In this document: positions 12,170 to 61,350 of the stretch, in pieces
Layout of the letters: the number at the start of each line of letters is the position of its first letter
Position numbering within the stretch: position 1 is the first letter of the stretch
Program-made: the position numbers and the translations under genes
NCBI GenBank assembly: GCA_041658625.1
Contig: JBAZZW010000002.1
Span: 344,299-408,298 of the forward strand
Reading direction: 5' to 3'
DNA from: Actinomycetota bacterium
GTDB taxonomy: Bacteria; Actinomycetota; JAHEXW01
Length of the DNA stretch: 64,000 nucleotides
Notes under the pieces: model-generated
Database searches by the model: none
What the model was told of the DNA's origin: nothing
Seen by the model: only the letters and a program-made list of their open reading frames with translations

Positions 12170-12423
12170 TGGCGGTCCGCCTTTGCACTAACATTACAGG
12201 TAGGCATTAAAATTCTGCCTTGTTCGTGATTTGCGAAGCGTATATTTGAGCCAACACTCAAATACAGGGAGCCGAGTAAGGGGGCACCCACCTGCGTGCG
12301 CACAGGGTTCAATTGCGCGGCGGACACGGCAAGGCGGAACCCTGCTAAATAGGAAATAATATATAAGAAACAAGAAACCCGCTTATGCGAGCCAAAGAAA
12401 CAATTAATAAAAAACCTGAACAG

Positions 12424-12431
12424 GCCGATAA
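12424..12431 (+). promoter_or_regulatory. GCCGATAA motif (sigma-28-type -10 element) in the unexplained intergenic region
   Basis: Exact 8-mer match to the FliA/SigD -10 consensus. The -35 TAAA is only ~12 nt upstream (suboptimal spacing). Coordinates +/- 2. Confidence 0.25.
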
Positions 12432-12498
12432 CCTTAAACATGAAATAATAAACATGGTAAGAACCGTCATCCTGGGCGAGCGGCATTTGCGAGCGCAG

Positions 12499-12518
12499 CC
12501 TGCCTGCCGGCAGGCAGG
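12499..12518. repeat. perfect palindrome CCTGCCTGCC|GGCAGGCAGG (copy 1 of 3)
   Basis: 20-nt perfect inverted repeat; identical cores near 62024-62046 and 62967-62986. Confidence 0.8.
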
Positions 12519-12605
12519 GAACTGAGACGAGGCTATGCATTCGGTCCTAGTCGTGTTTGGTGGAACAGAAACAGTAAGCAATAAACCTTAGGAAGGGAGA
12601 TTAAG

Positions 12606-13199
12606 CTGAAGAGTCGGAGGCTACTAGCGGCAATATCTTTAATCGCCCTGACGGCATTGTTAGCGGCCGGATGCGGCGGCGGAGAAGAGACCACCACCAC
12701 AACCACTAACACGCCCGCCACGTCAACAACAACGCCGACGACGACCACCGGCGGCACCGGCAACTTAAGAAAAGTGCCAACGCCGTCCACTCTCGAGGTC
12801 AAGCCGGTCGAAAAATTCAACGACAAATTCCCGGACGAGTTCGCCGTAAACATTGTATTTACGCCGAACACGGACACCCCGCAGTTCTTTACCGACGCGC
12901 TAAAGAAAAAGATGCCGATGGTAGTGGAATTCTATGGTCAGGTAGATTCGATAAGCTCAAGCATGACGCAAGGTATCTCGGAGTTGCAGTCGAAGTACAG
13001 CGGTAAGGTTTTGTTTATCCTGCTTGACGCGGACAATCCGCAATCATACGGCTCTCTGTCGGCCCAGCTGCCGGTTCAGTATATTCCTCAAATATTTGTC
13101 TTCAACAAAAACTCGACGATAATTCGGAGCTATACCGGTTACGTTGATAAAACTCGCTTAGACCAGGCTCTTTATGACGCCGTCAACCGCGGATACTGA
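12606..13199 (+). CDS. lipoprotein with poly-Thr linker and thioredoxin-like C-terminal domain (no CxxC)
   Basis: The track ORF starts at TTG 12657 (MLAAGC…), which would delete the signal peptide. In-frame upstream codons encode KLKSRRLLAAISLIALTALLAAGC, a classic lipoprotein signal with lipobox LAAGC. Only CTG (12606) or ATT (12600) are available as starts. RBS GGAAGGGAG sits 6 nt before the CTG. Confidence 0.55.
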   Translation: MKSRRLLAAISLIALTALLAAGCGGGEETTTTTTNTPATSTTTPTTTTGGTGNLRKVPTPSTLEVKPVEKFNDKFPDEFAVNIVFTPNTDTPQFFTDALKKKMPMVVEFYGQVDSISSSMTQGISELQSKYSGKVLFILLDADNPQSYGSLSAQLPVQYIPQIFVFNKNSTIIRSYTGYVDKTRLDQALYDAVNRGY

Positions 13200-14514
13200 T
13201 CGGCCGCTCTCACTTCGCATGCGGCCCAGGCGGCTTGAAGACTTCGCCGGGCAGGAAGAAATTGTCGGGCAGGGCACCGTCTTACGTCAGGCAATCCAAG
13301 AAGACACCTTAAGTTCCGCCATTTTTTGGGGTCCCCCGGGCTGCGGCAAAACCACGCTGGCTGAGATAATCGCCGAAATGACGTCGGCGGAATTCGTGAA
13401 AATCAGCGCGGTTACGGCGACCGTCGGCGACGTGAGAAAGGTTATCGCGGCGGCCAGGGAGAGGCAAAAAGCATACGGCCGCCGTACGATCATGCTTCTA
13501 GACGAGGTCCACCGTTTCAACAAGGCTCAGCAGGACACCCTGTTACCGGCCGTTGAGGACGGCACGCTCATCCTTATCGGCACAACGACAGAAAACCCCT
13601 ATTTCGAAGTAAACTCGGCCCTGATATCCAGATCGCGAGTATTCCAGTTAAACGGGCTAAGAGACGGAGACCTTTCAGCCATCCTTAAAAGAGCGCTCAA
13701 GGACAATGAGAACGGCCTGGGGCGGGAGAAAGTCGTTTTGGACAAAGGGGCCGAGGAACACTTGATTAAAACAGCGGCCGGCGACGCAAGATCTCTTTTA
13801 AACGGGTTGGAGACGGCCGCGCTGGCGGCTCGTCCCGACGCGAAGGGGCGGAGACTGATTACCCTGGAAATCGCCGAAGACGCAATGCAGCGACGCGCCC
13901 TTTTGTACGACATGAAGGGCGAAGCTCATTACGATGTAGCCAGCGCGTTTATTAAAAGTATGCGAGGAAGCGACCCGCAAGCGGCTGTATATTGGCTGGC
14001 TGTTATGATTTACGGCGGCGAGGACCCGAAGTTTATCGCGCGCCGGATGATCATTTTCGCCAGCGAGGACGTGGGCAACGCCGACCCGATGGCGCTGGTC
14101 GTGGCGACGGCCACCGCTCAGGCCATGCAGAACGTAGGCTTGCCCGAGGCCCGGATAAATCTGTCGCAGGCGGCCATATATCTGGCGACCGCGCCAAAAA
14201 GCAACGCCTCCTACGCGGCCATAGACGCGGCCTTAAAGGATGTGGCCCAGGGACCTTTATCGCCGCCGCCCAAACACATCAGGAATGCGCCTCACCCGGG
14301 GATGAAAGAACAAGGATACGGCGTGGGGTATAAATATCCCCACAATTATCCCGGCCACGTCGTCGAGCAGGAATACCTGCCGCCGGAGCTGAAGGGACGG
14401 GAATACTACAAGCCGAGTGATTCCGGAGCGGAAGCCCTTATCAAGAAGCGAATGACTGACAACAAGTATGATAAAATCAAAGCACCGGACAAAGGATCCG
14501 GCGGTAAACCTTAA
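13174..14514 (+). CDS. rarA: replication-associated recombination protein A (AAA+ ATPase RarA/MgsA)
   Basis: Walker A GPPGCGKTT, Walker B LLDEVHRFNK, MgsA C-terminal domain. ATG 13219 is an alternative start that avoids overlap. Confidence 0.9.
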   Translation: MTPSTADTDRPLSLRMRPRRLEDFAGQEEIVGQGTVLRQAIQEDTLSSAIFWGPPGCGKTTLAEIIAEMTSAEFVKISAVTATVGDVRKVIAAARERQKAYGRRTIMLLDEVHRFNKAQQDTLLPAVEDGTLILIGTTTENPYFEVNSALISRSRVFQLNGLRDGDLSAILKRALKDNENGLGREKVVLDKGAEEHLIKTAAGDARSLLNGLETAALAARPDAKGRRLITLEIAEDAMQRRALLYDMKGEAHYDVASAFIKSMRGSDPQAAVYWLAVMIYGGEDPKFIARRMIIFASEDVGNADPMALVVATATAQAMQNVGLPEARINLSQAAIYLATAPKSNASYAAIDAALKDVAQGPLSPPPKHIRNAPHPGMKEQGYGVGYKYPHNYPGHVVEQEYLPPELKGREYYKPSDSGAEALIKKRMTDNKYDKIKAPDKGSGGKP

Positions 14515-20050: not shown

Positions 20051-20533
20051 GTGAGCTTGCTGAGGCCCAACCACAGGTTCCGCGAAGCGACTGAGATTAC
20101 GCCCGAATTCCTGACCGCCAACGATATCACCGGCCTTCTTGTAGACATCGACAACACGATCGTTCCTTGGCGAGGTGAAAATCCGTCGACTGAGATCCAG
20201 GGCTGGATAAAGAGACTGAAACAAGCCGGCGTCGTCCTCACGCTATTAAGTAACGCCGGTGGACGGAGAGCAGCGCGCATGTCGGAGATACTAGACGTGC
20301 CGGTCGTCGCTCCGGCCAAGAAGCCTTTCAGGTCCGGTTACAGGCGCGGGCTGGAGATCTTGGGACTGTCTAAACAGCAAGTCGCGGCCGTTGGCGATCA
20401 GGTTTTCATGGACGTATTCGGCGGCAACCGGTCAGGAGTCAGGACGATTCTCGTGGAGCCGGTAAGCCGTCACGAGTTCTTCGGCACGAGACTTTTAAGG
20501 CAGGCGGAGAAAATCGTAAGAAAACCCCTTTAA
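20051..20533 (+). CDS. YqeG-family HAD phosphatase (HAD-IIIA)
   Basis: LLVDIDNTIV DxD motif, GDQVFMD. Precedes aroE as yqeG does in Bacillus. Confidence 0.7.
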   Translation: MSLLRPNHRFREATEITPEFLTANDITGLLVDIDNTIVPWRGENPSTEIQGWIKRLKQAGVVLTLLSNAGGRRAARMSEILDVPVVAPAKKPFRSGYRRGLEILGLSKQQVAAVGDQVFMDVFGGNRSGVRTILVEPVSRHEFFGTRLLRQAEKIVRKPL

Positions 20534-20552
20534 GGTAAAATCAATTTAGACT

Positions 20553-20578
20553 TAAAGTTTCCTCGCAGTTGCCGATAA
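20553..20578 (+). promoter_or_regulatory. sigma-28 (FliA/SigD)-type promoter upstream of aroE and the pil operon
   Basis: TAAAGTTT-cctcgcagtt-GCCGATAA: both halves are exact matches to the enterobacterial FliA consensus (TAAAGTTT N11 GCCGATAA; Bacillus form TAAA N15 GCCGATAT) with a 10/14-nt spacer. It lies in the 143-nt gap between yqeG-like and aroE. Confidence 0.55.
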
Positions 20579-20676
20579 TATGCATAGGGTAAAATGCAAG
20601 CGTGCGCTTACTTACACGGCGTAGTCTTTGGGCGAAAGACAGGCGGACCGCGCTGCATAAGGAGGAACAGACTAAA

Positions 20677-21516
20677 GTGATTACCGGAACGACAAAAATA
20701 GTCGGTATTATCGGCGACCCGGTTGCCGGGTCGTTGTCTCCGCAAATGCACAACGCCGCTTTCTCCCACGACGGATTGGACTGGGTCTACGCCGCCTGGA
20801 AGGTATCGCAAGATGATCTGGCTGACGCGATCGCGGCGGTTAGGGCTCTAGGCATAGCAGGTTTAAACGTGACGATGCCCCACAAAGGACCGGTCATCAA
20901 GTATTTGGACAGCGTTGACGATGAAGCCTTGGCGATCGGGTCTGTCAACACCATCGTTAATACTCACGGTAGGCTTAAGGGTTACACAACAGACGGAGAG
21001 GGTTTCCGTCTTTCATTAAAAGACGCCGGATATGACCCAACCGGAAAAAAAGCAATCATAATAGGCGCAGGCGGGGCGGCCAGGGCGGTCGCCCGAAAGC
21101 TGGCCGAGAGACGGGCCGCGGTGGTCGACGTCGCCTGCCGGAATCAGGAAAGCGGGCGGAAGCTCGCGGATATCGTAAAGTCGGGCGGCGCGGAATCCAC
21201 TCAATATGACATCAATGAAGAAGCGGCGGCCCCGCTAAAGCGGGCCGATATGATCATAAACGCGACACCATTAGGCAAATACTCTTTAGACGACATAAAA
21301 TTCCTGGCGGACGGGCTCAATCCCGAACAATTCGTGGCCGACTTGAGCACCGTTCCTCCGCTCAGCGCATTCCTCGTCGCCGCCCAAGAACGAGGCTGCA
21401 CCGTCATGGGCGGTTTGGGCATGCTCGTCCGTCAGGGATCTTTATCTTATAAGCTGTGGACCGGCCTGGACGCGCCCTTGGACGTCATGCGCCGGGCGGT
21501 CGGTGAGGAAAAATGA
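20677..21516 (+). CDS. aroE: shikimate dehydrogenase
   Basis: IGDPVAGSLSP…NVTMPHK…GAGGAARA motifs. GTG 20677 after AAGGAGGA is the likely start (the track ORF begins at 20602). Confidence 0.9.
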   Translation: MITGTTKIVGIIGDPVAGSLSPQMHNAAFSHDGLDWVYAAWKVSQDDLADAIAAVRALGIAGLNVTMPHKGPVIKYLDSVDDEALAIGSVNTIVNTHGRLKGYTTDGEGFRLSLKDAGYDPTGKKAIIIGAGGAARAVARKLAERRAAVVDVACRNQESGRKLADIVKSGGAESTQYDINEEAAAPLKRADMIINATPLGKYSLDDIKFLADGLNPEQFVADLSTVPPLSAFLVAAQERGCTVMGGLGMLVRQGSLSYKLWTGLDAPLDVMRRAVGEEK

Positions 21517-23189
21517 GAGAAGGAAGGAAACAGCTCGGCGACCTGTTGGTCGAACGTGGCAAAATTACAGCCGAACAACTTGACGAGGCCTTGACCCGCC
21601 AGCGCGCCAATGGGGAACCGCTGGGGCAGATGCTGGTCGACTCCGGTTACATAACGGAAACGGACCTATTAAAGATGCTGGCCGAGCAGCTGGGGCTAGA
21701 TTTTGTCGACCTTACCGAATATAAGATCGACCTGTCGGCGGTCGCTATGCTGCCGCATAACGTCGCTAAGAAGAACCTGGTCCTGCCGGTGGGTTTCGAG
21801 GAGAACAAGCTGGTCGTAGCAACGGCCGACCCTACCAACGTGTTTATCTTCGACGACTTGAGGATTATGACTGGATTTGAGATAAAACCGGTTGTCGCCT
21901 CCAAGGAAGACCTTATCGGAGCGACCGAGCGTTTTGCCCAGAGCGAAGACGTTCTTGAGGAAGCGTCCAAGGGAGAGGAGACTTTTTCCGAAGCGCAGAC
22001 GGCGGCCAAGGAAGCGGAAGAAGCGGCCGAGGAAGCGCCGATCGTCAAGCTGGTTAACCTGATAATTAACCAGGCGGTCGAGGAACGGGCGTCGGATATT
22101 CATATAGAACCCCAGGAAGACGACATGAGGATCAGATATAGGGTGGACGGTGTTTTACACGAAGTCATGCGGAGTCCCAAGAAGATTCAAGCCGGTCTTA
22201 TATCAAGACTGAAGATCATGGCCGACATGAATATTGCCGAACGCCGGGTACCGCAAGACGGCCGGATCGGTCTGGTCGTCGGCGACCGCGCGGTTGATTT
22301 CCGGGTGGCCAGCCTGCCCAGCGTCTACGGAGAACAGATGGTTTTACGTATCCTGGAGAAGGAAAGCATCATGCTGGACCTGGAGGATCTGGGATTCTTC
22401 CCGGAAACGCTCGAGGTATTTCGCAAGGCCGTCGGCAAACCTTACGGAACGGTGCTGGTCACCGGTCCAACCGGCTCGGGCAAATCAACGACTCTATACG
22501 CCACTTTAAACGTCCTCAACGTGCCGGAGAAAAATATTATGACTATCGAGGACCCCGTTGAGTACCGCCTGTCGGGCATTAGCCAGATGCAGGTCAACCT
22601 GAAGGCGGGGATGACCTTCGCGGCCGGCTTAAGAGCGGTCTTGCGCGGCGACCCGGATTGCCTGCTCGTCGGCGAGATCCGGGACAGAGAGACCGCGCTG
22701 ATCGCCATAGAAAGCGCCTTAACCGGACATCTCGTTCTCTCGACGCTTCACACAAATGACGCTCCGTCAGCGGTGACCAGGCTAATTGAGATGGGCGTGG
22801 AACCGTTTCTGATAGCCTCGGCCTTGGATTGCGTGTTGGCCCAGCGGCTGGCCCGGCGTTTGTGTAAGTACTGCAAAGAAAAGCACGTTTTGACGGGCAA
22901 AGAGGTAAAGAACCTCGGTTTTCCCGCGGATGAAACTAAGAAATACGAGTTTTACAAACCGATCGGCTGTACCCGCTGCAACAACACCGGATATAAAGGC
23001 CGGATGGGCGTTCACGAGGTAATGTTAATGACGCCGACTGTCGGGGAGCTCGCCGTTAAGAAAGCGAGCTCGGATGAGCTTATGAGAAATGCTATCAAGG
23101 AAGGCATGAATACCCTGCGGCAAGACGGCTTCAACAAAGCTCTGGCTGGCATGACGTCGTTAGAAGAGGTTATTAGGGTGGTCGCTTAA
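21513..23189 (+). CDS. pilB: type IV pilus assembly ATPase PilB/GspE (copy 1) with N-terminal tandem MshEN motifs
   Basis: Walker A GPTGSGKST, Asp/His boxes, tetracysteine CKYC…CTRC. N-terminus KQLGDLLVERGKITAEQLDEALTRQ and PLGQMLVDSGYITETDLLKMLAEQ match the 24-residue MshEN c-di-GMP-binding motif. Confidence 0.9.
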   Translation: MREGRKQLGDLLVERGKITAEQLDEALTRQRANGEPLGQMLVDSGYITETDLLKMLAEQLGLDFVDLTEYKIDLSAVAMLPHNVAKKNLVLPVGFEENKLVVATADPTNVFIFDDLRIMTGFEIKPVVASKEDLIGATERFAQSEDVLEEASKGEETFSEAQTAAKEAEEAAEEAPIVKLVNLIINQAVEERASDIHIEPQEDDMRIRYRVDGVLHEVMRSPKKIQAGLISRLKIMADMNIAERRVPQDGRIGLVVGDRAVDFRVASLPSVYGEQMVLRILEKESIMLDLEDLGFFPETLEVFRKAVGKPYGTVLVTGPTGSGKSTTLYATLNVLNVPEKNIMTIEDPVEYRLSGISQMQVNLKAGMTFAAGLRAVLRGDPDCLLVGEIRDRETALIAIESALTGHLVLSTLHTNDAPSAVTRLIEMGVEPFLIASALDCVLAQRLARRLCKYCKEKHVLTGKEVKNLGFPADETKKYEFYKPIGCTRCNNTGYKGRMGVHEVMLMTPTVGELAVKKASSDELMRNAIKEGMNTLRQDGFNKALAGMTSLEEVIRVVA

Positions 23190-24869
23190 ATGAAGGAAAG
23201 CCGGAAACAATTGGGCGACTTGCTGGTCGCTCAAGGCGTAATCAAACAGGAGCAGTTGGACGAGGCCCTGAAGACGCAGAAGGAGAGCGGGGAGCCGCTC
23301 GGCCGCGTCTTGGTTAAGAGAGGGCTCGTCACCGAGGCCGACCTGTTAAGAATTCTGGCCAACCAGCTCGGTTTGGACTACGTTGACCTGAACGAATACA
23401 AGATCGATTTAAGCGCGGTGTCGCTGATTCCGGAAAGAATAGCCAAGAAAAATGTAGTCTTACCGATAGGATTCGAGGACGACAAGTTGATTGTGGCCGT
23501 AGCGAATCCGACGGACGTCTTTATTTTTGATGACCTAAGGATGATGACGGGATTCGAGGTCCGGCCGGTGGTCAGCACAAAAGAAGATATTCTGGCTTCA
23601 ATCAGTCGGTACGCCAGGGCGGACCAGCTGGTCGGCGAGGGGCTTGACGAGTTAACTCGCGAGGTGGCCGGCGAAGCCGAGGAAGAGGAATCTATCGCCG
23701 CGGCGATAGACGAAGCGCCGATCGTGAAACTGGCCAACTTGATTATCAACCAGGCCATAAACGATAGAGCCTCGGATATTCATATCGAACCGCAGGAGAA
23801 GGACGTTCGCGTCCGTTACCGCATAGACGGCGTTTTACACGAGATCATGACGCCGCCGAAGAGAGTTCAAGCCGGGTTGATTTCCCGCATCAAAATCATG
23901 TCGGACCTTAACATCGCGGAAAATCGCGTGCCGCAAGACGGCCGCATCGGCCTGAACGTTGCCGGGCGGGCTGTCGACTTACGGGTGGCGACGCTGCCGA
24001 CGGTTTACGGGGAAAAGATCGTCATGCGTATTCTGGAAAAGGAAAGCATCATGATCGACCTCAAAGACCTTGGTTTTTTACCTGACACCCTGGAGAGATA
24101 CCAGAGATCGTTTAAGAAACCGTACGGAGCCATCCTTATAACAGGACCGACCGGTTCCGGCAAAACGACGTCGCTGTACGCGGCGCTGAACGTGCTTAAC
24201 ACGATAGAGAAGAAGATCATTACGGTCGAGGACCCCGTGGAATACAAACTACCAGGCGTCATCCAGGTTCAAATCAACGCCAGGGTCGGCCTGACGTTCG
24301 CGGCCGCCCTAAGGTCTATATTACGCAACGACCCCGATATTGTAATGATCGGTGAGATACGGGATAGGGAGACAGCCCTGATCTCCGTTGAAAGCGCGCT
24401 GACGGGCCACCTGGTTTTAGCCACCCTGCATACCAATGACGCGCCGCAAGCCTTGACCAGGCTGACCGAGATGGGTATAGAACCATTCTTGTCAGCCTCG
24501 GCCGTCGATTGCGTCGTCGCTCAGCGATTGGCAAGAAAGCTCTGCAAATCCTGCAAAGAAGCTTATACGCCGGACGAGGAATCACTAAAGGCGGCGGGCT
24601 TTCCGTTCGAAAAAGGAGAGAAGCTGACATTTTATAAGGCGGTCGGTTGCGGAAAATGTAAGGGGAGCGGATACAAAGGGCGATTGGGGATTTATGAAGT
24701 AATGCTGGTCAGTGAGACGATTGAAAAGCTGTCGGTGGAACGGGCTTCGTCCGACGAAATCGGGCGACAGGCTGTCATAGAAGGCATGAGCACGTTGAAA
24801 GACGACGGTTATGAGAAAGTCAGGCAGGGGACGACAAGCTTGGAAGAGGTTCTGAGGGTCGTCGCGTAA
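23190..24869 (+). CDS. pilB: type IV pilus assembly ATPase PilB/GspE (copy 2, tandem paralog)
   Basis: 559 aa, collinear with copy 1 (~65% identity by eye). Walker A GPTGSGKTT, tetracysteine CKSC…CGKC, intact MshEN motifs (KQLGDLLVAQGVIKQEQLDEALKTQ). Confidence 0.9.
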   Translation: MKESRKQLGDLLVAQGVIKQEQLDEALKTQKESGEPLGRVLVKRGLVTEADLLRILANQLGLDYVDLNEYKIDLSAVSLIPERIAKKNVVLPIGFEDDKLIVAVANPTDVFIFDDLRMMTGFEVRPVVSTKEDILASISRYARADQLVGEGLDELTREVAGEAEEEESIAAAIDEAPIVKLANLIINQAINDRASDIHIEPQEKDVRVRYRIDGVLHEIMTPPKRVQAGLISRIKIMSDLNIAENRVPQDGRIGLNVAGRAVDLRVATLPTVYGEKIVMRILEKESIMIDLKDLGFLPDTLERYQRSFKKPYGAILITGPTGSGKTTSLYAALNVLNTIEKKIITVEDPVEYKLPGVIQVQINARVGLTFAAALRSILRNDPDIVMIGEIRDRETALISVESALTGHLVLATLHTNDAPQALTRLTEMGIEPFLSASAVDCVVAQRLARKLCKSCKEAYTPDEESLKAAGFPFEKGEKLTFYKAVGCGKCKGSGYKGRLGIYEVMLVSETIEKLSVERASSDEIGRQAVIEGMSTLKDDGYEKVRQGTTSLEEVLRVVA

Positions 24870-24914: not shown

Positions 24915-25970
24915 ATGCCGAAAATCGAAGAGTTGATGGAAACAGTCATGGCCAAGGACGCCTCCGACCTTCACCTCACGGCGGGTATCCCGCCAACCCT
25001 TCGGATCCATGGGAAGTTGGAACACATGGACAAACCCATCTTGGAACACGAAGACGTTATGGCTCTAGTCTACGAGATTCTCAACGACAGCCAGAGACGT
25101 CGTTTGGAGGCGGACCGCGAACTGGATTTGTCGTATGCTTACGAAGACAAGGCCCGATTCAGAATCAATGTTTACTGGCAGCGCGGCAACTTGGCCGCGG
25201 CGCTCCGTCTGATTCCGCCGGCGGTAAAGTCCCCGCGCGATCTGGGGTTGCCGCCGATCGTGGAGATGCTGGCCGCGAAACCTCGAGGTTTTATCTTGGT
25301 GACCGGGCCGACGGGCTGCGGCAAGTCGACCACGTTGGCGGCGATGATCAATATCATCAACCGGACCAGAAGCGAACACGTCCTGACCATTGAGGATCCG
25401 ATCGAGTTTATGCACAAACACGATAAGAGCATGGTCAATCAGCGGGAGGTTGGCGCCGATACCCATTCATTTTCCAGCGCGTTACGCCATGTACTTAGGC
25501 AGGACCCGGACGTTATTCTGGTCGGCGAGATGCGCGACCTGGAGACGATCTCCATCGCGCTGACGGCCGCGGAAACCGGCCACTTGGTTTTCGCCACCTT
25601 GCACACGCAGGACGCGCCTCAAAGCATCGAGCGTGTTATCGATGTTTTCCCGTCTCAACAGCAGCACCAGATTCGGATTCAGCTGGCCAGCACGCTGCAG
25701 GCGATTCTGGCCCAGCAATTGATTCCGGCCAAAGGAGGCGGCGAGAGAAAAGTCGCCGTCGAGGTCATGATGGCCACGCCGGCTATCAGAAACATGATCA
25801 GGGACGATAAGACACATCAGATAATCTCGGCCATGCAGGCGGGTTACAGCACAGGCATGCAGACCATGGATCAGGCGCTGGCAGCCCTCGTTAAAACGAA
25901 TCAGGTCACGTACGACGACGCTATGCAAAGGGCAATCGACCCTGACGTTTTCAAGAGACTGGTCGGGTAG
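24915..25970 (+). CDS. pilT: twitching-motility retraction ATPase PilT
   Basis: 351 aa with no N-terminal extension. GPTGCGKSTT, AIRNMIRD-type PilT signature. Confidence 0.9.
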   Translation: MPKIEELMETVMAKDASDLHLTAGIPPTLRIHGKLEHMDKPILEHEDVMALVYEILNDSQRRRLEADRELDLSYAYEDKARFRINVYWQRGNLAAALRLIPPAVKSPRDLGLPPIVEMLAAKPRGFILVTGPTGCGKSTTLAAMINIINRTRSEHVLTIEDPIEFMHKHDKSMVNQREVGADTHSFSSALRHVLRQDPDVILVGEMRDLETISIALTAAETGHLVFATLHTQDAPQSIERVIDVFPSQQQHQIRIQLASTLQAILAQQLIPAKGGGERKVAVEVMMATPAIRNMIRDDKTHQIISAMQAGYSTGMQTMDQALAALVKTNQVTYDDAMQRAIDPDVFKRLVG

Positions 25971-25980
25971 GTGGGAATAA

Positions 25981-27201
25981 ATGGCGACAACATTCGCGTA
26001 TAAGGGTCGCGACGCATCCGGGAAAACGATTTCCGGAACGCTGGAGGGAGATAACGAGACTCAGGTGGCGGAGAGCCTTCGCCGGATGGGTTACTTGGTT
26101 AACTCCATAACTGCCGAAAAGGGCGGCCTGCAGATGCAAATCGGCGGGGGCTCCAAGCGGAGGAAAAGGGTTAAGAGCGGCGAGCTGGTCGTATTCACGC
26201 GACAGTTCGCGACGATGATCAACGCGGGTTTGCCGTTAGCCCGCTGTCTGGGGGTAATGTCGCAGCAGTCGCCTAATCCGGGAATGGCCGCGACCATCGA
26301 AGACGTGCTGCACGACGTCGAAGGCGGTTTGGCGCTGTCGAACGCCATGGCCAAGCACCCCAAGGTTTTCAACACGCTTTACGTAAGCATGGTCAAAGCG
26401 GGTGAAACCGGCGGTATATTGGACGAGGTCCTAACCAATGTCGCCGAGAACCTGGAGAAGAACGAAGAGATTAAAAGCAAGATAAAATCGGCCATGGCTT
26501 ACCCGGTGTTGATGTTCATCATGTCGATCGTCCTGGTCATTGTCATGTTGGTGTTTATCGTACCGGTCTTTACGGGGATGTTCGCGCAGCTAGGCGGGGA
26601 GCTGCCGCTGCCGACGCAGATACTTGTTAACTTAAGCGCTCTAATCAGTTCAACCTGGTGGTTCGGCATCCCGTTGACCATCCTGGCGATTTACGGAATC
26701 AGGAAATCTTTAAGCATCCCGGCGGTCAGGTTCAAATGGGACACCGTTAAACTGAGGATTCCCATCGTCGGTCCGGTTGTCAAACAACAGTCGGTGTCGA
26801 GGTTCGCGAGAACACTGGGGACCTTATCCAGCGCCGGCGTACCGATCCTAGAGGCGCTGGACGTTGTGGAGAATACCGTCGGAAACGCTTTGATTTCATC
26901 AGAAGTGGCCAAGATAGCGCTGGGGGTAAAAGAGGGACAGACGATTGCCCAGCCCCTCGGTAAGATAAAGGTCTTTCCGCCTATGGTCGTGCAAATGGTC
27001 GCCGTTGGAGAAGAATCGGGCGCCATGGACACGATGCTTATCAAAGTGGCTGAGTTTTACGACAAGGAGGTTGCGACGACCATCGAAGGGCTATCGTCGA
27101 TTCTCGAGCCGGTCATGCTTATCGGCGTAGGTTTGGTTATCGGCGGCATCCTGATATCTCTATACCTGCCGATGTTCAAACTGGCCAGTTTGATTAAATA
27201 A
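25981..27201 (+). CDS. pilC: type IV pilus platform protein PilC/GspF
   Basis: 406 aa. Two T2SSF repeats, 3-4 TM. Confidence 0.9.
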   Translation: MATTFAYKGRDASGKTISGTLEGDNETQVAESLRRMGYLVNSITAEKGGLQMQIGGGSKRRKRVKSGELVVFTRQFATMINAGLPLARCLGVMSQQSPNPGMAATIEDVLHDVEGGLALSNAMAKHPKVFNTLYVSMVKAGETGGILDEVLTNVAENLEKNEEIKSKIKSAMAYPVLMFIMSIVLVIVMLVFIVPVFTGMFAQLGGELPLPTQILVNLSALISSTWWFGIPLTILAIYGIRKSLSIPAVRFKWDTVKLRIPIVGPVVKQQSVSRFARTLGTLSSAGVPILEALDVVENTVGNALISSEVAKIALGVKEGQTIAQPLGKIKVFPPMVVQMVAVGEESGAMDTMLIKVAEFYDKEVATTIEGLSSILEPVMLIGVGLVIGGILISLYLPMFKLASLIK

Positions 27202-27311
27202 GAAAATTATCAAATAAACAAATAATTCTAAAGTCGACAGGCGCCGCGTCCGACAATCAATAGGAAAGAAAGATACAGGTTTATTAAGGCATATGGAGGG
27301 AGGTGACTCAA

Positions 27312-27743
27312 ATGCTAACGAAAATCCGCAAGATGTCAAGGCGGGAAGAGGGCTTCACTCTGATCGAACTCATGGTCGTTATTCTTATCATAGGTATCCT
27401 CATGGCTATCGCCATCCCGTCTTTCATCGCTGTACGCAACAGAGGTTATGCGTCAACCGCGAAGGCGATCCGTTCAACAGCTGTCAAGACAATGGAGTTG
27501 TACGGAGTCGACAACAGCGGCGACTATTCTGGAGCGACGGCCCTCGCCTTAGGCGCGTTGGAGAAGAGCATTCCTTTCCTGAATGCGGCTCCCGCCGCCG
27601 GTGATTTCAAATCGGCCGGTATGTCCGGATTAGCCGCTGACGCGTACACCATCACGGTTAACGGCCGTGACGGAAACACTTACACGGCAGTCAAGGCTGC
27701 CGGCCTGGCTGTTGTCTATAACACGAACGGCGTACCTGAATAG
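27312..27743 (+). CDS. pilA: type IV major pilin (prepilin, class III signal peptide)
   Basis: MLTKIRKMSRREEG|FTLIELMVVILIIGIL: prepilin cleavage/N-methylation motif G|FTLIE plus a hydrophobic helix. ATG 27312 is preferred over track GTG 27303 because of GGAGGGAGG RBS spacing. Confidence 0.85.
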   Translation: MLTKIRKMSRREEGFTLIELMVVILIIGILMAIAIPSFIAVRNRGYASTAKAIRSTAVKTMELYGVDNSGDYSGATALALGALEKSIPFLNAAPAAGDFKSAGMSGLAADAYTITVNGRDGNTYTAVKAAGLAVVYNTNGVPE

Positions 27744-27769: not shown

Positions 27770-27812
27770 TAAAAAAAGAGGCGGCGCGGAAAAAACCGCG
27801 CCGCCTCTTTAG
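27770..27812. terminator. strong GC-rich hairpin terminator after pilA (bidirectional character)
   Basis: aaaaaaa-GAGGCGGCGCGG-aaaaaa-CCGCGCCGCCTC-ttt: 12-bp perfect stem. A-tract 5' and T-run 3'. Confidence 0.7.
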
Positions 27813-27914: not shown

Positions 27915-27922
27915 GCCGATAA
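27915..27922 (+). promoter_or_regulatory. GCCGATAA motif upstream of the minor-pilin genes
   Basis: Exact FliA -10-like 8-mer, 9 nt before the GTG of the FN3 pilin-like gene. No properly spaced TAAA -35. Confidence 0.25.
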
Positions 27923-27930: not shown

Positions 27931-29019
27931 GTGAACACGATGAACCGTTTGAACAGCATACGCAATAATGAATCGGGTTTTACGTTAACCGAGATCATGG
28001 CCGCCTCGGCCATCATTACAATAGGCATTCTAGGTATTATGATCGTGTTCAACTCCACCTTAAACACGCAAACAAACACAAAGGTCAGAACCCTGGCGAC
28101 GAATATCGCGACCGAGAAAGTGGAAGCCGCCAGGACGATCGCGTACGATACGCTGACGCAAGAATACCTGGCGGCCAATCTCGGAACGACCGCCACAAAA
28201 GGCGGCGTAACGTTTACTATTACATATACTGTGGCGTTTGTTGACGATCCTTCGGACGGCACTGGCACAGGCGATTTAAATCCTAACGATTTTAAAAATG
28301 TGCAGATTACCGTGGCTTGGACGAACCCTCAGCCTTCGTCCTCGGTCGTTATAGATACATTGATTAATAAGAACCCGGTCGCGCCGGCTAGCGCCAGCAC
28401 CGACACGACCGCGCCGGTTTGGCCTAACGCGGGTGTAGGCGTTCTGTCCGGGCGCGCGGAACAGACAACGCCAGGGCTGGGTATGTATATCCAATGGTCG
28501 CCAAACTGGGCCACGGACGCCAACGGCGTCGTCGGCTATCTAATATACCGCCAGCCGCCGGACGACACGAGCTACATGCTTATCGCTACGGTTGCACCGA
28601 GCGTGGGTTGGTTCCTGGACAATTATTATACGGCGGGTGGCTCGTACAATTTTTATGTCAAGGCCTTCGACGGCGCGGGCAATTTGAGCGGACCGTGTAA
28701 TATTGTGACGATTGTCGGTCCGGCGGATACGATTGCGCCCAGTATCCCCCTCAATGTAACCGGACAGGCTACCAGCCCGACGACGGGGACATTAAGCTGG
28801 TCGTTGGCAACGGACAACTCGGGCGTGGTCGATCACTACAACATATACAGAACGCATTCAGGCAATCCTTTCGGGAACACGCCTTATACGTCGAAAAGTT
28901 CCCCGCCGTTTAACGATACCGGACTTAGCACAGGCATTACTTACCAGTATTATATTGCGGCCGTCGATCCGACCGGCAATGAGGGCGGCAAGTCCACAAC
29001 CGTATCAATAACTCCCTAG
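27931..29019 (+). CDS. pilin-like protein with N-terminal prepilin signal and two fibronectin-III-like domains
   Basis: MNTMNRLNSIRNNESG|FTLTEIMAASAIITIGILGIM prepilin N-terminus. C-terminal repeats (…WSPNWATDANGVVGYLIYRQ…YVKAFDGAGNLSGP… and …LSWSLATDNSGVVDHYNIYRT…YQYYIAAVDPTGNEGG…) look like FN3 folds. Confidence 0.7.
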   Translation: MNTMNRLNSIRNNESGFTLTEIMAASAIITIGILGIMIVFNSTLNTQTNTKVRTLATNIATEKVEAARTIAYDTLTQEYLAANLGTTATKGGVTFTITYTVAFVDDPSDGTGTGDLNPNDFKNVQITVAWTNPQPSSSVVIDTLINKNPVAPASASTDTTAPVWPNAGVGVLSGRAEQTTPGLGMYIQWSPNWATDANGVVGYLIYRQPPDDTSYMLIATVAPSVGWFLDNYYTAGGSYNFYVKAFDGAGNLSGPCNIVTIVGPADTIAPSIPLNVTGQATSPTTGTLSWSLATDNSGVVDHYNIYRTHSGNPFGNTPYTSKSSPPFNDTGLSTGITYQYYIAAVDPTGNEGGKSTTVSITP

Positions 29020-29032
29020 CGGGGAGGGTCCA

Positions 29033-29665
29033 ATGACATTCGGCAACAAGCACATCGGGAAAGCATATCGAGGAAAAGGACAAGCCGGTTACACGCTTCC
29101 GGAAGTGCTGGTTTCCGCGATCATCGGCGTGCTTCTCCTAACGGCCGTGTTCGGGATATTGCAGTCGGTGATGAGCAGTTATTACGTGCAAAACGCACAA
29201 GCCGAGGCGCAAGCCGAGGCGCAGTTCACGATGATGAGACTTGTCAAGGAAATCAGGCAAGCGGAGAAGCCGCTATTGGCTATATCCATAAATCCGGGCA
29301 GCGTTGAAACGCTGGCTTTTAAAGCGGATTTAAACAATGACGGAACGTCTGAAGCGATCCTTTACTCATATAACGGATACTTGCATAAGATTGTCAAACA
29401 AGTAAATACAACCGGAGTATATGATTTTACCGCTTCGCCGCAAGAGACGATAGCCTCGAATATCCGGAACAATTACAGCCAAACGCTCTTTACTTTTTAT
29501 GGAACCAGCCTGACAACGCCGCTTGATCCGACTAATCCGAGCGCCGATATTATTAATAAAACAAAACTAATAAAGATCAGAGTGGTAATCGACAAGGATG
29601 TGGCAAAACCGCCGGCGCCTATAGACTTGACGTCGGAAATCAAGCTACGCAATTTTGGCTACTAG
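29033..29665 (+). CDS. minor pilin / pseudopilin (PilW-like, prepilin N-terminus)
   Basis: …GKGQAG|YTLPEVLVSAIIGVLLLTAV class III signal motif. 210 aa. RBS GGGGAGGG. Confidence 0.65.
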   Translation: MTFGNKHIGKAYRGKGQAGYTLPEVLVSAIIGVLLLTAVFGILQSVMSSYYVQNAQAEAQAEAQFTMMRLVKEIRQAEKPLLAISINPGSVETLAFKADLNNDGTSEAILYSYNGYLHKIVKQVNTTGVYDFTASPQETIASNIRNNYSQTLFTFYGTSLTTPLDPTNPSADIINKTKLIKIRVVIDKDVAKPPAPIDLTSEIKLRNFGY

Positions 29666-29679
29666 ACTGGTGGTTTAAG

Positions 29680-31074
29680 ATGACACGCAAGAGAATTTTC
29701 AGTTTTGACGAGAAAGGTTCGGCCTTAATAGCGGCCATAGGCGTCATGATGGTACTGGACCTTTTCGCGGTCGCGGTGCTGGCCATTTCGGCAAGCCAAA
29801 TGACGTTGGCTACAACCGAAAGAAAGACAAACCAGGCATTCAATGTCGCCGAAGCGGGCTTTAACAATGCACTCTGGAAGATCGACAATATCGCCAACTA
29901 TGCTCCGGCTGAAAGCGCGCCTGATTACGGCTCCGTGTCAGGCGGCGATTATAAAATCGTCGTTACCGATGTCACAGGTACGACGAACCAGAAGAGGGTG
30001 GAAGTCACCGGCTACGTTCCGAATAGGTATCACTCCAATCCCGGAAGGCGAAAGATAGTGGCCATGGTTGAGGTGGCACCGAAGGTCTTAAGCTATGGCA
30101 TGTACGCATTTTCCTGGATCGACATCCAGGGGGCGACCGCCAGAACATATCTGGCGCCGCTGGATTATCGCGCCTCCGACGCCAAAGGCGGAGACATGGG
30201 CTCCAACTTTGATATCTTTTTCAACGACGCGGCCATAAGGTTGAATGAAAGAGGAACCCAGCAGGGCGAGCAAAATACTTATGACGCGCTTTTCGGCGTT
30301 CCGGCGGTGCCGATGGGAGATCTTATAACGGCGGGACCGACGGCCGAGGTCCACGCGGTAAATACGGTGGTAAATACGATCCAGGAGCTAAACGCCAAGT
30401 GCCAGTACGTCAAGATGGCCAGCATAAAACACATGAACCAGCCGATCACCTTCCCGACTTTGAATTTCGAGGGCGCCGGCGGCTACAGAGAAATGGCCCA
30501 GAACAACTTTACGAACGGTACAAAATATTGGGCGACCGAGCATTCCGGGTATTTCACCAAAGCGGATTTTACCGCCTTGTTCTCCGGCCGGAACAACGTC
30601 GAGCTGACGGGTATGATTTTTATCGACGGCGAAGTTGACCTTCCCAACAACAAGAACCTGACCATTACCAACGGCGGGCTGGTCATCAAGGACGATCCCA
30701 ATGACCCCAGTCAGGCGCTGTCGCTCGCCAATCGAGCGTCGCTTATAGTCAGACACTCGTCCGAAGCGAGCAAGGTCTTTCCCGGCTTGATCGTCTTCAC
30801 GACCGTGGGGAGCACGGCGTCCGTCGTTGATAGGGGAACGATGGAGATTGAAGGACTAGTATACTCAGAGAGAACTTATAGCGAATCCAACTCGACAGTG
30901 CGCATTAAAGGAGCCCTGCTGGCCAGCGGTACTTCTGCGGCGGCCAGTATAGTTAACATGAATGCCAGCATTATCATCCAGTATGACCCGAACGTCACGA
31001 ACATGTTAGGCTTAAAAACATTCGGCGACGTATTCGTAAAAAAGGTGACGAGCTGGCGCGAGGTTACGCCATAG
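29680..31074 (+). CDS. PilX-like pilus assembly protein (PilX N-terminal domain) with large C-terminal domain
   Basis: N-terminus GSALIAAIGVMMVLDLFAVAVLAISASQMTLATTERKTNQAFNVAEAGFNNALWKI matches the PilX_N family signature. 464 aa. Confidence 0.65.
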   Translation: MTRKRIFSFDEKGSALIAAIGVMMVLDLFAVAVLAISASQMTLATTERKTNQAFNVAEAGFNNALWKIDNIANYAPAESAPDYGSVSGGDYKIVVTDVTGTTNQKRVEVTGYVPNRYHSNPGRRKIVAMVEVAPKVLSYGMYAFSWIDIQGATARTYLAPLDYRASDAKGGDMGSNFDIFFNDAAIRLNERGTQQGEQNTYDALFGVPAVPMGDLITAGPTAEVHAVNTVVNTIQELNAKCQYVKMASIKHMNQPITFPTLNFEGAGGYREMAQNNFTNGTKYWATEHSGYFTKADFTALFSGRNNVELTGMIFIDGEVDLPNNKNLTITNGGLVIKDDPNDPSQALSLANRASLIVRHSSEASKVFPGLIVFTTVGSTASVVDRGTMEIEGLVYSERTYSESNSTVRIKGALLASGTSAAASIVNMNASIIIQYDPNVTNMLGLKTFGDVFVKKVTSWREVTP

Positions 31075-39582: not shown

Positions 39583-39991
39583 GGGTACGGTCAAGAAATA
39601 TGCGGACAAACAGGTCATATTCGAAGAAGGCGACCGAGGAGACAGGATGTACGTTGTCGTGTCCGGCTATGTGAGGATCTACCGGACGCGGGGCGGAAAG
39701 AACATTGATTACGGGATTATCGGACCCGGGGAATTTTTCGGAGAAATGGCGATGTTCGCCGAACACAAGCGGAGCGCGTCCGCGCAAGCCAAAGGCTTGA
39801 CCGAGCTGTCGGTCATCGACGTAGACAATTTTTTAGGCAGAGTCAGGGACCCGCTGGTTCTTAACGTAATCAAGAAGCTTTCTGAAAGAATAAGGGAAAT
39901 CGACGACCGCATCGAAGGTTTGATAATGCAGGATCAGGTCCGGAAGGAACATTTAAGCAACCTTATCACCCACAGTAGAAGGATCTACTAA
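39569..39991 (+). CDS. stand-alone cyclic-nucleotide-binding domain protein (no DNA-binding HTH)
   Basis: 140 aa. GEFFGEMAMFAEHKRSASAQA CNB signature. Overlaps the cyclase gene by 14 nt (operon). Confidence 0.75.
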   Translation: MSPDRGTVKKYADKQVIFEEGDRGDRMYVVVSGYVRIYRTRGGKNIDYGIIGPGEFFGEMAMFAEHKRSASAQAKGLTELSVIDVDNFLGRVRDPLVLNVIKKLSERIREIDDRIEGLIMQDQVRKEHLSNLITHSRRIY

Positions 39992-43426: not shown

Positions 43427-43483
43427 CATAGGACGGAAATCCGTTCGCGAATAAGAGATTCAAACGGGAGCTGCTATGAATCA

Positions 43484-61302: not shown

Positions 61303-61316
61303 AAAAGCATTGGTTT

Positions 61317-61324
61317 GCCGATAA
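61317..61324 (+). promoter_or_regulatory. GCCGATAA motif upstream of the GT2 gene
   Basis: Exact 8-mer 27 nt before ATG 61351. Confidence 0.25.
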
Positions 61325-61350
61325 ACCCTTCGATAAAGGATAATCAGAGC

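Follow-up and report, generated by a model that had tools for sequence, protein, structure and literature searches.

A predicted WhiG-type sigma-28 promoter heads an aroE-type IV pilus operon in an uncultured actinobacterium

In Rubrobacter radiotolerans and R. xylanophilus, type IV pili are under the control of the WhiG-(RsiG)2-(c-di-GMP)2 switch (Schumacher, Gallagher et al., PNAS 2021, PMC8325347). R. radiotolerans has 12 promoters of the TAAA/GCCGATAA type that were validated by mapped transcription starts, three of them inside the pilus cluster, where three promoters serve three units and nine genes. WhiG regulons, divided between a WhiG1 and a WhiG2 clade, have also been predicted for named taxa from 673 of their reference genomes (Denis et al., bioRxiv 2026, PMC12871210); they follow a WhiG2 consensus of T(A/C)AA-N16-nCCGA and include pil genes as predicted targets in Cellulomonadaceae, Jonesiaceae, Sanguibacteraceae, Cryptosporangiaceae and Rubrobacteraceae. 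In Actinoplanes, according to a 2019 study as cited in PMC8325347, sigma-28-family sigma factors direct pil transcription; in that account the organism is flagellated, has several FliA/WhiG paralogues and no RsiG, and expresses its pili together with flagella in zoospores. Outside the phylum, the group-3 sigma factor SigF of cyanobacteria drives pilA1 (Asayama and Imamura 2008, PMC2532724) and is required for pilin transcription and motility in a non-flagellated organism, although SigF belongs to another sigma subfamily and reads another promoter motif, so that it serves as an analogy only. The rewiring of WhiG to pili is already documented in Actinomycetota, and the case described here is a new example rather than a new principle.

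We analysed a 64,000-nt stretch of DNA (the window) from the metagenome-assembled genome (MAG) of an actinobacterium in an uncultured lineage outside Rubrobacteria. A sequence-only reading of the window had framed the repurposing of a flagellar sigma factor for pili as novel and Firmicute-like, a framing that falls away as the organism is an actinobacterium and WhiG control of pili has been published for that phylum. Like Rubrobacter, the window encodes an actinobacterial WhiG and carries predicted TAAA/GCCGATAA-type promoters, several of them inside the pilus cluster; whereas the Rubrobacter system was shown experimentally, the present one is predicted from sequence. It differs further in that the first promoter precedes aroE, a shikimate-pathway gene that heads the operon, and in that its spacer is N14, as opposed to the N16 reported as the WhiG2 consensus.

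This first promoter lies on the + strand in a 143-nt gap between yqeG (20051–20533, encoding a YqeG-type HAD phosphatase) and aroE. Its predicted –35 element, TAAAGTTT at 20553–20560, matches the extended –35 consensus of sigma-28 at 8/8 positions (PMC2859248), and 10 nt further on the –10 element, GCCGATAA at 20571–20578, does the same (8/8, with the invariant CGA core), making this the sole site in the window with 16/16 bases over both octamers. The sequence-only reading had called it a consensus sigma-28 promoter, which is right for both octamers and wrong for the spacer: the enterobacterial consensus is TAAAGTTT-n11-GCCGATAA, or TAAA-N15 (PMC2859248), so that the n10 spacer found here (TAAA-N14) is 1 nt shorter than in E. 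coli and 2 nt shorter than the N16 of WhiG2. The site is co-oriented with the operon, and its –10 element stands 98 nt from the aroE start codon, within the distance of up to about 200 bp used for such promoters; this start is the GTG at 20677, not at 20678 as first read. From the usual distance of about 7–8 nt between a –10 element and the first transcribed base we would place the transcription start near 20586, which predicts a 5′ leader of ∼91 nt (20586–20676) with a ribosome binding site, AGGAGG, at 20660–20665. A riboswitch or structured leader in this gap was ruled out, as there is no Rfam match (E ≤ 5) and fold energies are no better than those of shuffled sequences (z = 0.58 for the window and –0.99 for the relative L006, neither significant). 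The class III flagellar promoters that FliA/SigD reads in Enterobacteria and Bacillus (PMC2859248) share the identical octamers and the same sigma family but have n11 where this site has n10, and they serve flagellin, motor and chemotaxis genes where this one precedes shikimate and pilus genes, with neither FlgM nor flagellar genes nearby. The site at 20553–20578 is very probably a real promoter that is read by a flagellar-type sigma factor, WhiG, and switches on the type IV pilus genes. We assign a probability of about 0.75 to the more specific reading that it is recognised by RNA polymerase carrying the window-encoded WhiG and that the pil cluster is WhiG-driven.

If the match were due to chance it would have no promoter function, a reading that we disfavour and regard as highly improbable. 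It draws on the off-consensus spacer and on the shorter, 12-base form of the motif (TAAA plus GCCGATAA), which turns up in 9/100 shuffled windows; TAAA-N13-16-GCCGATAA occurs once on both strands of the window against 0.09 expected. The 16-base form, TAAAGTTT-N9-12-GCCGATAA, likewise occurs once but was never produced in 100 shuffles (0.00). Intergenic DNA makes up 6% of the window, and the real site lies there, on the strand of the genes and suitably spaced from a start codon. Conservation of the site in relatives, sister promoters in the same pil cluster and a cognate sigma factor encoded in the window, all described below, also stand against chance. The –10 octamer alone is enriched as well: GCCGATAA is present 13 times where 3.4 copies are expected. 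Nine of the 13 are inside coding sequence; the remaining four (12424, 20571, 27915 and 61317) are intergenic and all on the + strand, which is the gene strand, and compare with 0.10 expected in the 3565 nt of intergenic DNA, a count that was reached in 0/2000 shuffles; intergenic DNA of the window holds zero copies on the – strand. Intergenic sites with at most one mismatch number three against 0.067 expected (0/2000 shuffles), with none on the – strand. The observation of the sequence-only reading that the copies at 12424, 27915 and 61317 are intergenic, on the + strand and directed toward genes stands, but all three are without a consensus –35 element.

The closest relatives of the window are Actinomycetota MAGs that share the gene order alaS-ruvX-mltG-yqeG-aroE-pilB, and in four of them (L005, L006, L007 and L015) yqeG, aroE and pilB are still adjacent in this order. 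The orthologous gap of L005 and L006 carries TAAAGTAT-N11-GCCGATAC, equal to N15 counted from TAAA, with TAAAGT retained, and that of L015 carries TCAAACTT-N12-GACGATAA, equal to N16. The main motif is therefore retained in the close relatives L005 and L006 and in part in L015, while sequence upstream of the –35 element is unalignable. L005 and L006 are nearly identical here and count as roughly one independent observation, and the footprint is blurred further by a leader that is itself ∼65% conserved in them; in L007, whose PilB is 66% identical and whose synteny is shared, the 88-nt gap has no recognisable motif. Beyond these relatives, other Actinomycetota carry independent sigma-28 motifs linked to pil genes. 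Two Solirubrobacterales MAGs (L031 and L032) have TCAA-N16-GCCGATAA ∼95 nt before pilB, L075 and L078 have TCAAGTCG-N12-GCCGATGA before a pilT paralogue, and L013 has TAAAAATT-N10-ACCGATAA, again N14, before the gene that follows pilC (115 aa, pilin-sized by length alone). In a metagenome scan with AroE for further copies of the gap, no homologue exceeded 44% identity apart from one truncated fragment at 48%, hardly any was linked to pilB, and the motif matches among them lay in coding sequence or before unrelated genes.

While these comparisons favour a functional site, the sigma-28 motif could still be minor, weak or vestigial, with the aroE-pil genes transcribed mainly by read-through from alaS-ruvX-mltG-yqeG or from a sigma-A promoter in the gap, for which TTGCCG-N15-TAAAAT with its –10 at 20590–20595 is an example. 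Our scan of the gap between yqeG and aroE found no terminator-like site on the + strand, so that upstream read-through could supply transcription, and yqeG reaches into the –35 element with its stop codon in L005 and L006. The short N14 spacer, against a consensus of N15 or N16, points the same way: the sigma-28 holoenzyme reportedly works best with n11-12 spacing (work by Yu et al. from 2006), and for this reason the main promoter may be weak. Moreover, the TAAAAT hexamer lies only 12 nt downstream of the sigma-28 –10 element, and aroE, given its housekeeping role, would not be expected to need an alternative sigma factor. However, the same scan found no sigma-70-like promoter in the gap, where TTGCCG and TAAAAT are 15 nt apart, and TAAAAT is not kept as a –10 element in L005 and L006 (CTAAAT / TAAATG) while the sigma-28 elements are. 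The N14 spacer, for its part, recurs at the site downstream of pilC in L013, and a WhiG promoter and read-through are not mutually exclusive. We therefore consider it unlikely that read-through or sigma-A accounts for most of the transcription, and retain the WhiG promoter as the preferred reading.

Starting near 20586, the WhiG promoter would yield a polycistronic aroE-pilB1-pilB2-pilT-pilC mRNA, with WhiG region 4 predicted to read TAAAGTTT and regions 2/3 to read GCCGATAA. The first gene, aroE (20677–21516), encodes shikimate dehydrogenase (Pfam Shikimate_dh_N, SDH_C and Shikimate_DH), and its stop codon overlaps the start of pilB1 (21513–23189), the pilus extension ATPase. This is followed by a second extension ATPase paralogue, pilB2 (23190–24869); each of the two matches Pfam T2SSE at 473 bits together with MshEN, and the tandem pair is kept in L006 and L015. 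The retraction ATPase gene pilT (24915–25970; Pfam T2SSE, 351 aa) and the platform protein gene pilC (25981–27201; two copies of Pfam T2SSF) complete the unit, and all of these genes are on the + strand.

A second sigma-28-like promoter precedes the major pilin gene pilA and had been missed by the sequence-only reading. It spans 27229–27256 on the + strand and reads TAAAGTCG-N12-TCCGACAA (TAAA-N16-TCCGA). When the window is aligned with L006 and L015, no blocks upstream of the ribosome binding site are invariant except CTAAAGT and TCCGA, which keep the same spacing in all three genomes even though the spacer sequences have diverged. On this alignment it is a clean three-genome footprint and the best-conserved second promoter, and, lying less than 200 bp from the start codon, it also satisfies the published rule for WhiG2 sites, T(A/C)AA-N16-nCCGA (PMC12871210). 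For pilA itself (27312–27743, + strand; Pfam N_methyl and NCBIfam pilin models) the ATG at 27312 is preferred as it aligns in the three genomes, and a GTG at 27303 is also in frame. Immediately 3′ of pilA, terminator prediction marks a GC-rich hairpin of 15 bp (27775–27810, no strand assigned) whose T-run is scored on the – strand only, the U-tract on the + strand being short; it is probably the terminator of the pilA transcript. The second promoter may thus boost pilA on a transcript that would end at this hairpin.

Further downstream, an exact GCCGATAA –10 element without a consensus –35 (27915–27922, + strand) stands before the gene of an FN3-domain pilin, 8 nt ahead of its GTG at 27931 and 17 nt ahead of its ATG at 27940. 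The –35 region is TTAT or TATT; ATGCCGATA is invariant between the window and L015, and a –35 element, TAAAGTTA (N17), exists in L015 only. This tentative element may serve the minor-pilin unit (27940–31074, + strand), which is defined by N_methyl and fn3 matches and by weak PilV, ComGF and GspJ-like matches. The unit consists of the FN3-domain PilV-like pilin (to 29019), a second prepilin-type protein (29033–29665) and a 464-aa protein of unknown family (29680–31074), and its gene order is also found in L015. The pilus cluster therefore holds several WhiG-type elements, at 20553 (0 mismatches), 27229 (footprint) and 27915 (–10 only). If all three are used, the entire cluster would form a WhiG regulon of three transcription units, comparable to that of R. 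radiotolerans, except that the window has one strong promoter, one conserved variant and one –10-only element.

The predicted reader of these promoters, whiG, is encoded 30 kb downstream of the main site, at 51086–51895 on the + strand, where the sequence-only reading had placed a SigD/FliA-family sigma factor. The family is borne out and can be narrowed: the protein passes the NCBIfam WhiG equivalog (374.9 bits, cutoff 343), matches TIGR02479 FliA_WhiG (278.5 bits), scores 312 bits against the structure of Streptomyces venezuelae WhiG (6PFJ_A) compared with ∼160 bits against FliA structures, and aligns to S. venezuelae WhiG without gaps at 59% identity. By these matches it is a WhiG orthologue. 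A WhiG 95% identical to it is encoded on contig JBFOMW010000007.1 of GCA_040960625.1, a candidate genome of the same lineage. The contacts that characterise the WhiG2 clade are K57, G61 and R62 for c-di-GMP and T235, L236, Y239, E240 and L242 for RsiG (PMC12871210). The alignment to 6PFJ_A shows that the window protein keeps K57, G61, R62, L236, Y239, E240 and L242 (S. venezuelae numbering) and the block PLVKYVAGR, the sole change among the listed contacts being T235 to A. These residues suggest a WhiG2-like protein, an assignment made from this alignment.

The gene lies between xerC and rpsB in the window and in two relatives (L085 and L087), with no flagellar genes within 10 kb of it in any of the three. 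Pfam likewise identified no flagellar or chemotaxis genes among the ∼60 window genes scanned, as the sequence-only reading had stated. With aroE and pil genes downstream of the promoter and the sigma gene flanked by xerC and rpsB, the locus does not qualify as a flagellar regulon. The wider order xerC-whiG-rpsB-tsf-pyrH-frr matches the arrangement in Bacillus subtilis, where sigD closes the fla/che operon, a likeness that would fit a sigma factor left behind after loss of the flagellar genes. The same gene order had prompted a reading of the protein as a Firmicute SigD, which was dropped because three lines of evidence point to Actinomycetota: the relatives of PilB, the WhiG equivalog and the structure of WhiG from Streptomyces.

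It is conceivable that transcription does start from this promoter, but through a second flagellar-type sigma-28 paralogue (WhiG1/FliA) from another part of the genome, acting in place of the window sigma or alongside it. The host would then be flagellated and co-regulate its pili with flagella as in Actinoplanes zoospores, and no repurposing of the sigma factor away from flagella would have taken place. The 64 kb covered here leave room for such a gene, the WhiG1 and WhiG2 consensus motifs overlap extensively (PMC12871210), and the conserved –10 of the pilA promoters (TCCGAA / TCCGAC) resembles the –10 reported for WhiG1, GCCGAACT (PMC12871210). There is also the precedent of FliA-family sigma factors serving both pili and flagella in Actinoplanes, as related in PMC8325347. 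Against this, the window sigma keeps the WhiG2-specific contact residues for c-di-GMP and RsiG, and the –35 element here is TAAA and not the CTCA of WhiG1. Its xerC-whiG-rpsB locus, free of flagellar genes in the window and two relatives, is also unlike that of WhiG1, as 62% of WhiG1 genes lie in or adjoin a flagellar cluster (PMC12871210). Compared with Actinoplanes, the window has no flagellar genes and its sigma factor is WhiG2-like. A paralogue as the reader thus seems quite improbable to us, and the window-encoded WhiG remains the preferred candidate.

Retention of the c-di-GMP and RsiG contact residues, taken with the precedents of Streptomyces and Rubrobacter, makes it probable that the anti-sigma factor RsiG, armed by c-di-GMP, gates WhiG activity here. 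The window lacks the RsiG motif E(X)3S(X)2R(X)3Q(X)3D in each of its six frames, even when the motif is loosened, and a search by motif in 120+ loci returned nothing but one spurious ORF in an Armatimonadota locus, which leaves the gating step as an inference. In Streptomyces, rsiG is not known to be linked to whiG. The window thus shares with Rubrobacter a sigma locus without flagellar genes and a WhiG with retained contacts to c-di-GMP and RsiG, but differs in that no rsiG was found in the available sequence and that no DGC/PDE genes with WhiG promoters occur in the window, where GGDEF/EAL genes are absent. The 19-nt gap between xerC and whiG holds no motif; this lack of any sign of autoregulation is a difference from the regulons of Denis et al. 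(PMC12871210).

Elsewhere in the window the candidates are weak. TCAA-N15-GCCGATAA (61298–61324, + strand, one mismatch) precedes a GT2 glycosyltransferase gene (ATG 61351), but this site is not conserved in L085, where proS overlaps the GT2 gene, or in L087, and it overlaps an equally good sigma-70-like TTGCCG-18-GATAAT that would yield a leaderless mRNA. It was accordingly downgraded. TTAA-N16-GCCGATAA (12404–12431, + strand) has a poor –35 (TTAA or TAAT) and lies 60 nt past 6S RNA, followed about 175 nt later by the gene of a thioredoxin-like lipoprotein. The proposal that a flagellar sigma factor was repurposed for pilus and surface genes is therefore supported for the pilus, given a WhiG orthologue and a conserved promoter, while its surface-gene part is weak (61317 and 12424).

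The locus agrees with the regulons predicted by Denis et al. (PMC12871210) in its WhiG2-type features and pil targets, and the pilA site at 27229 fits their rule; it differs in coming from an uncultured MAG lineage and not from named taxa, and a search fixed at N16 would detect neither the main site at 20553 nor the sites of L005 and L006, which have N15. As the spacers of pil-linked sites range from N14 to N17, motif searches with fixed spacing under-call WhiG regulons, and the pilA promoters in addition carry a conserved TCCGA(A/C) variant of the –10 element. A bolder and rather doubtful extension is that WhiG in this lineage, having lost both flagella and RsiG, has the entire pil cluster headed by aroE as its main regulon, with promoters of relaxed or shortened spacer (N14-N17). 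If true, pilus control would have been the default of WhiG2 early in the phylum, over flagella or sporulation, and the fixed-N16 rule of published predictions would systematically miss pil operon promoters. The existing picture is unchanged by our analysis, whose value is that of a useful annotation. With the promoters predicted here, WhiG control of type IV pili would reach beyond the cultured Rubrobacter and Actinoplanes into an uncultured actinobacterial lineage for which metagenomes are the sole source, and the analysis adds weight to the published view that a flagellar-family sigma factor is re-used for pili in non-flagellated Actinomycetota.

From sequence evidence we put at about three in four the probability that the site at 20553-20578 is a promoter dependent on WhiG, from which one of the WhiG-type transcription units in the pilus cluster (up to three in all) would be read. 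It lies in a 143-nt gap between a YqeG-family HAD phosphatase gene (20051-20533, TIGR01668) and aroE, whose GTG start at 20677 is preceded by AGGAGG at 20660-20665. Both motif halves noted in an earlier sequence-only reading are present in the plus-strand candidate acTTAAAGTTTcctcgcagttGCCGATAAtatgcat, the −35 element TAAAGTTT at 20553-20560 and the −10 element GCCGATAA at 20571-20578, each a sequence match. On the same strand follow pilB1 (21513-23189, overlapping the aroE stop), pilB2 (23190-24869), pilT (24915-25970), pilC (25981-27201) and pilA (27312-27743), then a 15-bp GC hairpin (27775-27810) and the genes for an FN3-domain prepilin (27940-29019), a second prepilin-type protein (29033-29665) and a 464-aa protein without a family match (29680-31074). 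The tandem PilB extension-ATPase paralogues (21513-24869) are ~63% identical to each other and are kept as a pair in the pil loci of close relatives (L006, 8001-11366; L015, 8001-11362), with a single PilB in the relative L007. Directly downstream of the cluster lie a gene for an 830-aa fusion of nucleotidyl transferase, hexapeptide-repeat and phosphoglucomutase/phosphomannomutase domains (31537-34029) and a separate PGM/PMM gene (34036-35439).

The gene at 51086-51895, which the same reading had assigned to the SigD/FliA family, scores as WhiG, the actinobacterial member of that family, with 374.9 bits for the NCBIfam equivalog 'RNA polymerase sigma factor WhiG' (cutoff 343) and 278.5 bits for the FliA_WhiG subfamily. 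Against structures it reaches 312 bits with S. venezuelae WhiG (6PFJ_A) and about 160 bits with FliA; its alignment with S. venezuelae WhiG is gap-free over 245 residues at 59% identity. Most residues given in a 2026 preprint (PMC12871210) as diagnostic of the WhiG2 clade, regulated by the anti-sigma factor RsiG, are retained: the c-di-GMP contacts K57, G61 and R62 are kept as PLVKYVAGR, as are the RsiG contacts L236, Y239, E240 and L242, with T235 replaced by A. A search of the window and of every fetched locus gave no RsiG motif, and c-di-GMP enzyme genes (GGDEF or EAL) were not found in the window. The sole nucleotide second-messenger enzyme there is an adenylate/guanylate cyclase with a cNMP-binding domain, and the next gene encodes a stand-alone cNMP-binding protein (38521-39991).

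The host is an uncultured actinobacterium, not a Firmicute. By PilB, the GTDB species representatives nearest to it (84%, 84%, 74% and 66% identity) are MAGs that all carry the label Actinomycetota, Actinomycetes or Actinobacteria and share with it the order alaS-ruvX-mltG-yqeG-aroE-pilB, and the WhiG homologues carrying names come from Actinomycetota. The whiG gene is flanked by a XerC-type recombinase gene and rpsB-tsf-pyrH-frr-uppS-cdsA-dxr-rseP-ispG-proS, an order also found in two relatives, L085 (95% WhiG identity) and L087 (DeMMO3_18 MAG, on one contig with pil locus L015). In Bacillus subtilis the fla/che operon, with sigD as its last gene, occupies this position, and by analogy whiG fits a sigma factor left over after flagellar gene loss. 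As had been stated earlier, no flagellar genes lie within the 64-kb window, and chemotaxis genes are likewise missing from it. At 48234-50170 a gene for a CT398/CdsZ-like zinc-ribbon coiled-coil protein precedes an unusual RNase H and SAM hydroxide adenosyltransferase (SAM_HAT_N/C) fusion, a pair kept in L085 and L087 immediately 5′ of xerC-whiG.

On both strands of the window TAAA-N13-16-GCCGATAA matches once versus 0.09 expected, with at least one match in 9 of 100 shuffles, and the 16-base form of the motif has 0 matches in 100 shuffles. The 8-mer GCCGATAA alone occurs 13 times in the window versus 3.4 expected; nine copies lie in coding sequence (for example ATTATCGGC of the AroE N-terminus, 20708, minus strand), an excess that is explicable since the shuffle ignores codon and peptide constraints. 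Intergenic DNA (3565 nt) was taken as the informative test of the 8-mer excess, and here four exact copies stand versus 0.10 expected (0/2000 shuffles); all four are on the gene strand, and the opposite strand has none. Full-motif sites in intergenic DNA number three with at most one mismatch (0.067 expected; 0/2000 shuffles) and five with at most two (0.8 expected; 4/2000 shuffles). As these strand-specific counts exceed those of the shuffles, the motif and the intergenic recurrence of the 8-mer pointed out in the sequence-only reading are real. Isolated 8-mer matches need context, as the L015 locus illustrates at 14235-14262, where, between two pilA copies, a GCCGATAA scored as motif forms the loop of a hairpin terminator (GGCGGCC-gataa-GGGCCGCC-TTTT).

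In the orthologous yqeG-aroE gap, relatives L005 and L006 carry TAAAGTAT-N11-GCCGATAC, with canonical spacing and one mismatch at the last base of the −10, and L015 carries TCAAACTT-N12-GACGATAA; L007, despite the same synteny, has no motif in its 88-nt gap. The gap alignment keeps TAAAGT and GCCGATA and is lost upstream of the −35, a footprint whose weight is limited by a downstream leader that is also moderately conserved and by the near-identity of L005 and L006 across the gap. Near the predicted 5′ end of this aroE leader a small hairpin (20593-20612; about 7044-7065 in L006) takes the forms AAUGCAAGC-GUGC-GCUUAC and AAUGCAAGU-AUAA-ACUUACAUU, with one compensatory C-G to U-A change (two independent sequences; overall fold not significant); the leader matches no Rfam family and folds no better than shuffles.

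The spacer of the flagged site is n10 (nt between the octamers), and of the internal evidence it is this shortness that weighs most against a strong promoter. Reportedly (Yu et al. 2006), n10 spacing may give less transcription than n11/12. The enterobacterial consensus is TAAAGTTT-n11-GCCGATAA (PMC2859248), and the WhiG2 consensus with which regulons were predicted, T(A/C)AA-N16-GCCGA, corresponds to n12 (PMC12871210), so that the published WhiG2 pipeline would miss the site because of its spacer. Since the pil-linked sites collected here have spacers of n10 to n13, some spacer tolerance seems likely. If the gap were instead served by a sigma-A promoter, the sequence to consider is TAAAAT at 20590-20595 with TTGCCG 15 nt upstream, a poor candidate without conservation in L005 and L006, and a sigma-70 scan of the gap gave no match. 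A scan for plus-strand terminator-like sites after yqeG found none, and basal aroE expression probably comes from yqeG read-through.

WhiG-type promoters may also serve other pilus genes. With up to two mismatches tolerated, the rule used for Rubrobacter, the motif scan of the window returned five intergenic sites, all on the plus strand (12404, 20553, 27229, 27895 and 61298). The site at 27229-27256, TAAAGTCG-N12-TCCGACAA, absent from the earlier list, is a second sigma-28-like promoter candidate ~55 nt ahead of the pilA start codon and, judged by alignment, is the cleanest footprint of this analysis: when the pilC-pilA gap is aligned for the window, L006 and L015, only four blocks are invariant (CTAAAGT, TCCGA, the RBS and the ATG), and the TAAA-N16 distance is identical in all three with diverged spacer sequences. 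It conforms to the published WhiG2 rule T(A/C)AA-N16-nCCGA. The minor-pilin unit, beyond the pilA hairpin, would need a promoter of its own, and an exact GCCGATAA at 27915 is positioned ahead of it. At this site the window and L015 have ATGCCGATA unchanged, TAAAGTTA lies upstream (N17) in L015 only, leaving the window site without a −35, and a start at the usual distance would be about 27930, beside GTG 27931; the element is plausible but unproven as a minor-pilin promoter. Among other Actinomycetota, two Solirubrobacterales MAGs (L031, L032) carry TCAAGCAT-N12-GCCGATAA ~95 nt before pilB, a pilT paralogue in L075 and L078 is preceded by TCAAGTCG-N12-GCCGATGA, whose spacers have diverged, and the low-GC MAG L013 carries TAAAAATT-N10-ACCGATAA before a 115-aa ORF of pilin size that follows pilC.

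The sequence-only reading had proposed a flagellar sigma factor repurposed for pilus and surface genes. WhiG and the conserved pil sites support the pilus part; the extension to surface genes is unsupported beyond the 8-mer statistics, as the two sites outside the cluster are weaker. The plus-strand candidate TCAA-N15-GCCGATAA at 61298, before a GT2 glycosyltransferase gene, is missing in L085 (proS overlaps the GT2 gene, leaving no gap) and in the L087 gap, and overlaps a sigma-70-like TTGCCG-18-GATAAT whose predicted start falls exactly on ATG 61351, which would give a leaderless mRNA. The plus-strand candidate at 12404, whose −35 is TTAA or TAAT, lies between 6S RNA (12209-12344; Rfam 55 bits) and the gene for a thioredoxin-like lipoprotein. 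After proS a 12-bp hairpin (GGGGTCAGGCCC...GGGCCTGACCCC) precedes the overlapping sigma-28-like and sigma-70-like candidates (61253-61353), and further on a Gp49/HigB-like toxin gene (62332-62670) is followed by 807 nt without an ORF of at least 100 aa (62332-63477). The leader of the lipoprotein gene (12497-12606), downstream of 6S RNA, holds the perfect 20-nt palindrome CCTGCCTGCCGGCAGGCAGG, and the only RBS-supported start of this gene is CTG (12606) or ATT (12600). Other structured RNAs are a SAM riboswitch (196-303) before metK (384-1580) and a TPP riboswitch (43454-43575) before a thiamine block of hydroxyethylthiazole kinase, TMP synthase, ThiC, an AIR-synthase-like protein and HMP-P kinase.

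In a search of R. radiotolerans with the same consensus, Schumacher, Gallagher and colleagues validated 12 promoters by 5′-triphosphate end capture. Five of these precede DGC/PDE genes, and three belong to the type IV pilus cluster, where they serve nine genes in three units; the authors concluded that pilus production in Rubrobacter is controlled by the (RsiG)2-(c-di-GMP)2-WhiG switch (PMC8325347). Predictions for R. xylanophilus are similar, and in Actinoplanes WhiG-like sigmas serve zoospore pili and flagella (PMC8325347). In the 2026 preprint actinobacterial WhiG falls into two clades, WhiG1 linked to the flagellum and WhiG2 linked to RsiG, and pilus genes are predicted WhiG targets in several families (PMC12871210). 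Cyanobacterial pilA1, driven by SigF (PMC2532724), is an analogy from outside the phylum. Taken on sequence grounds, the repurposed-sigma hypothesis appears essentially right as to pili and its interpretation overall partly supported, and the principle is already established, since the Rubrobacter, Actinoplanes and phylum-wide WhiG-pilus work precedes it. New are the lineage, the position of aroE at the head of the operon, the short spacer at the flagged site and the conserved TCCGA(A/C) −10 variant at pilA.
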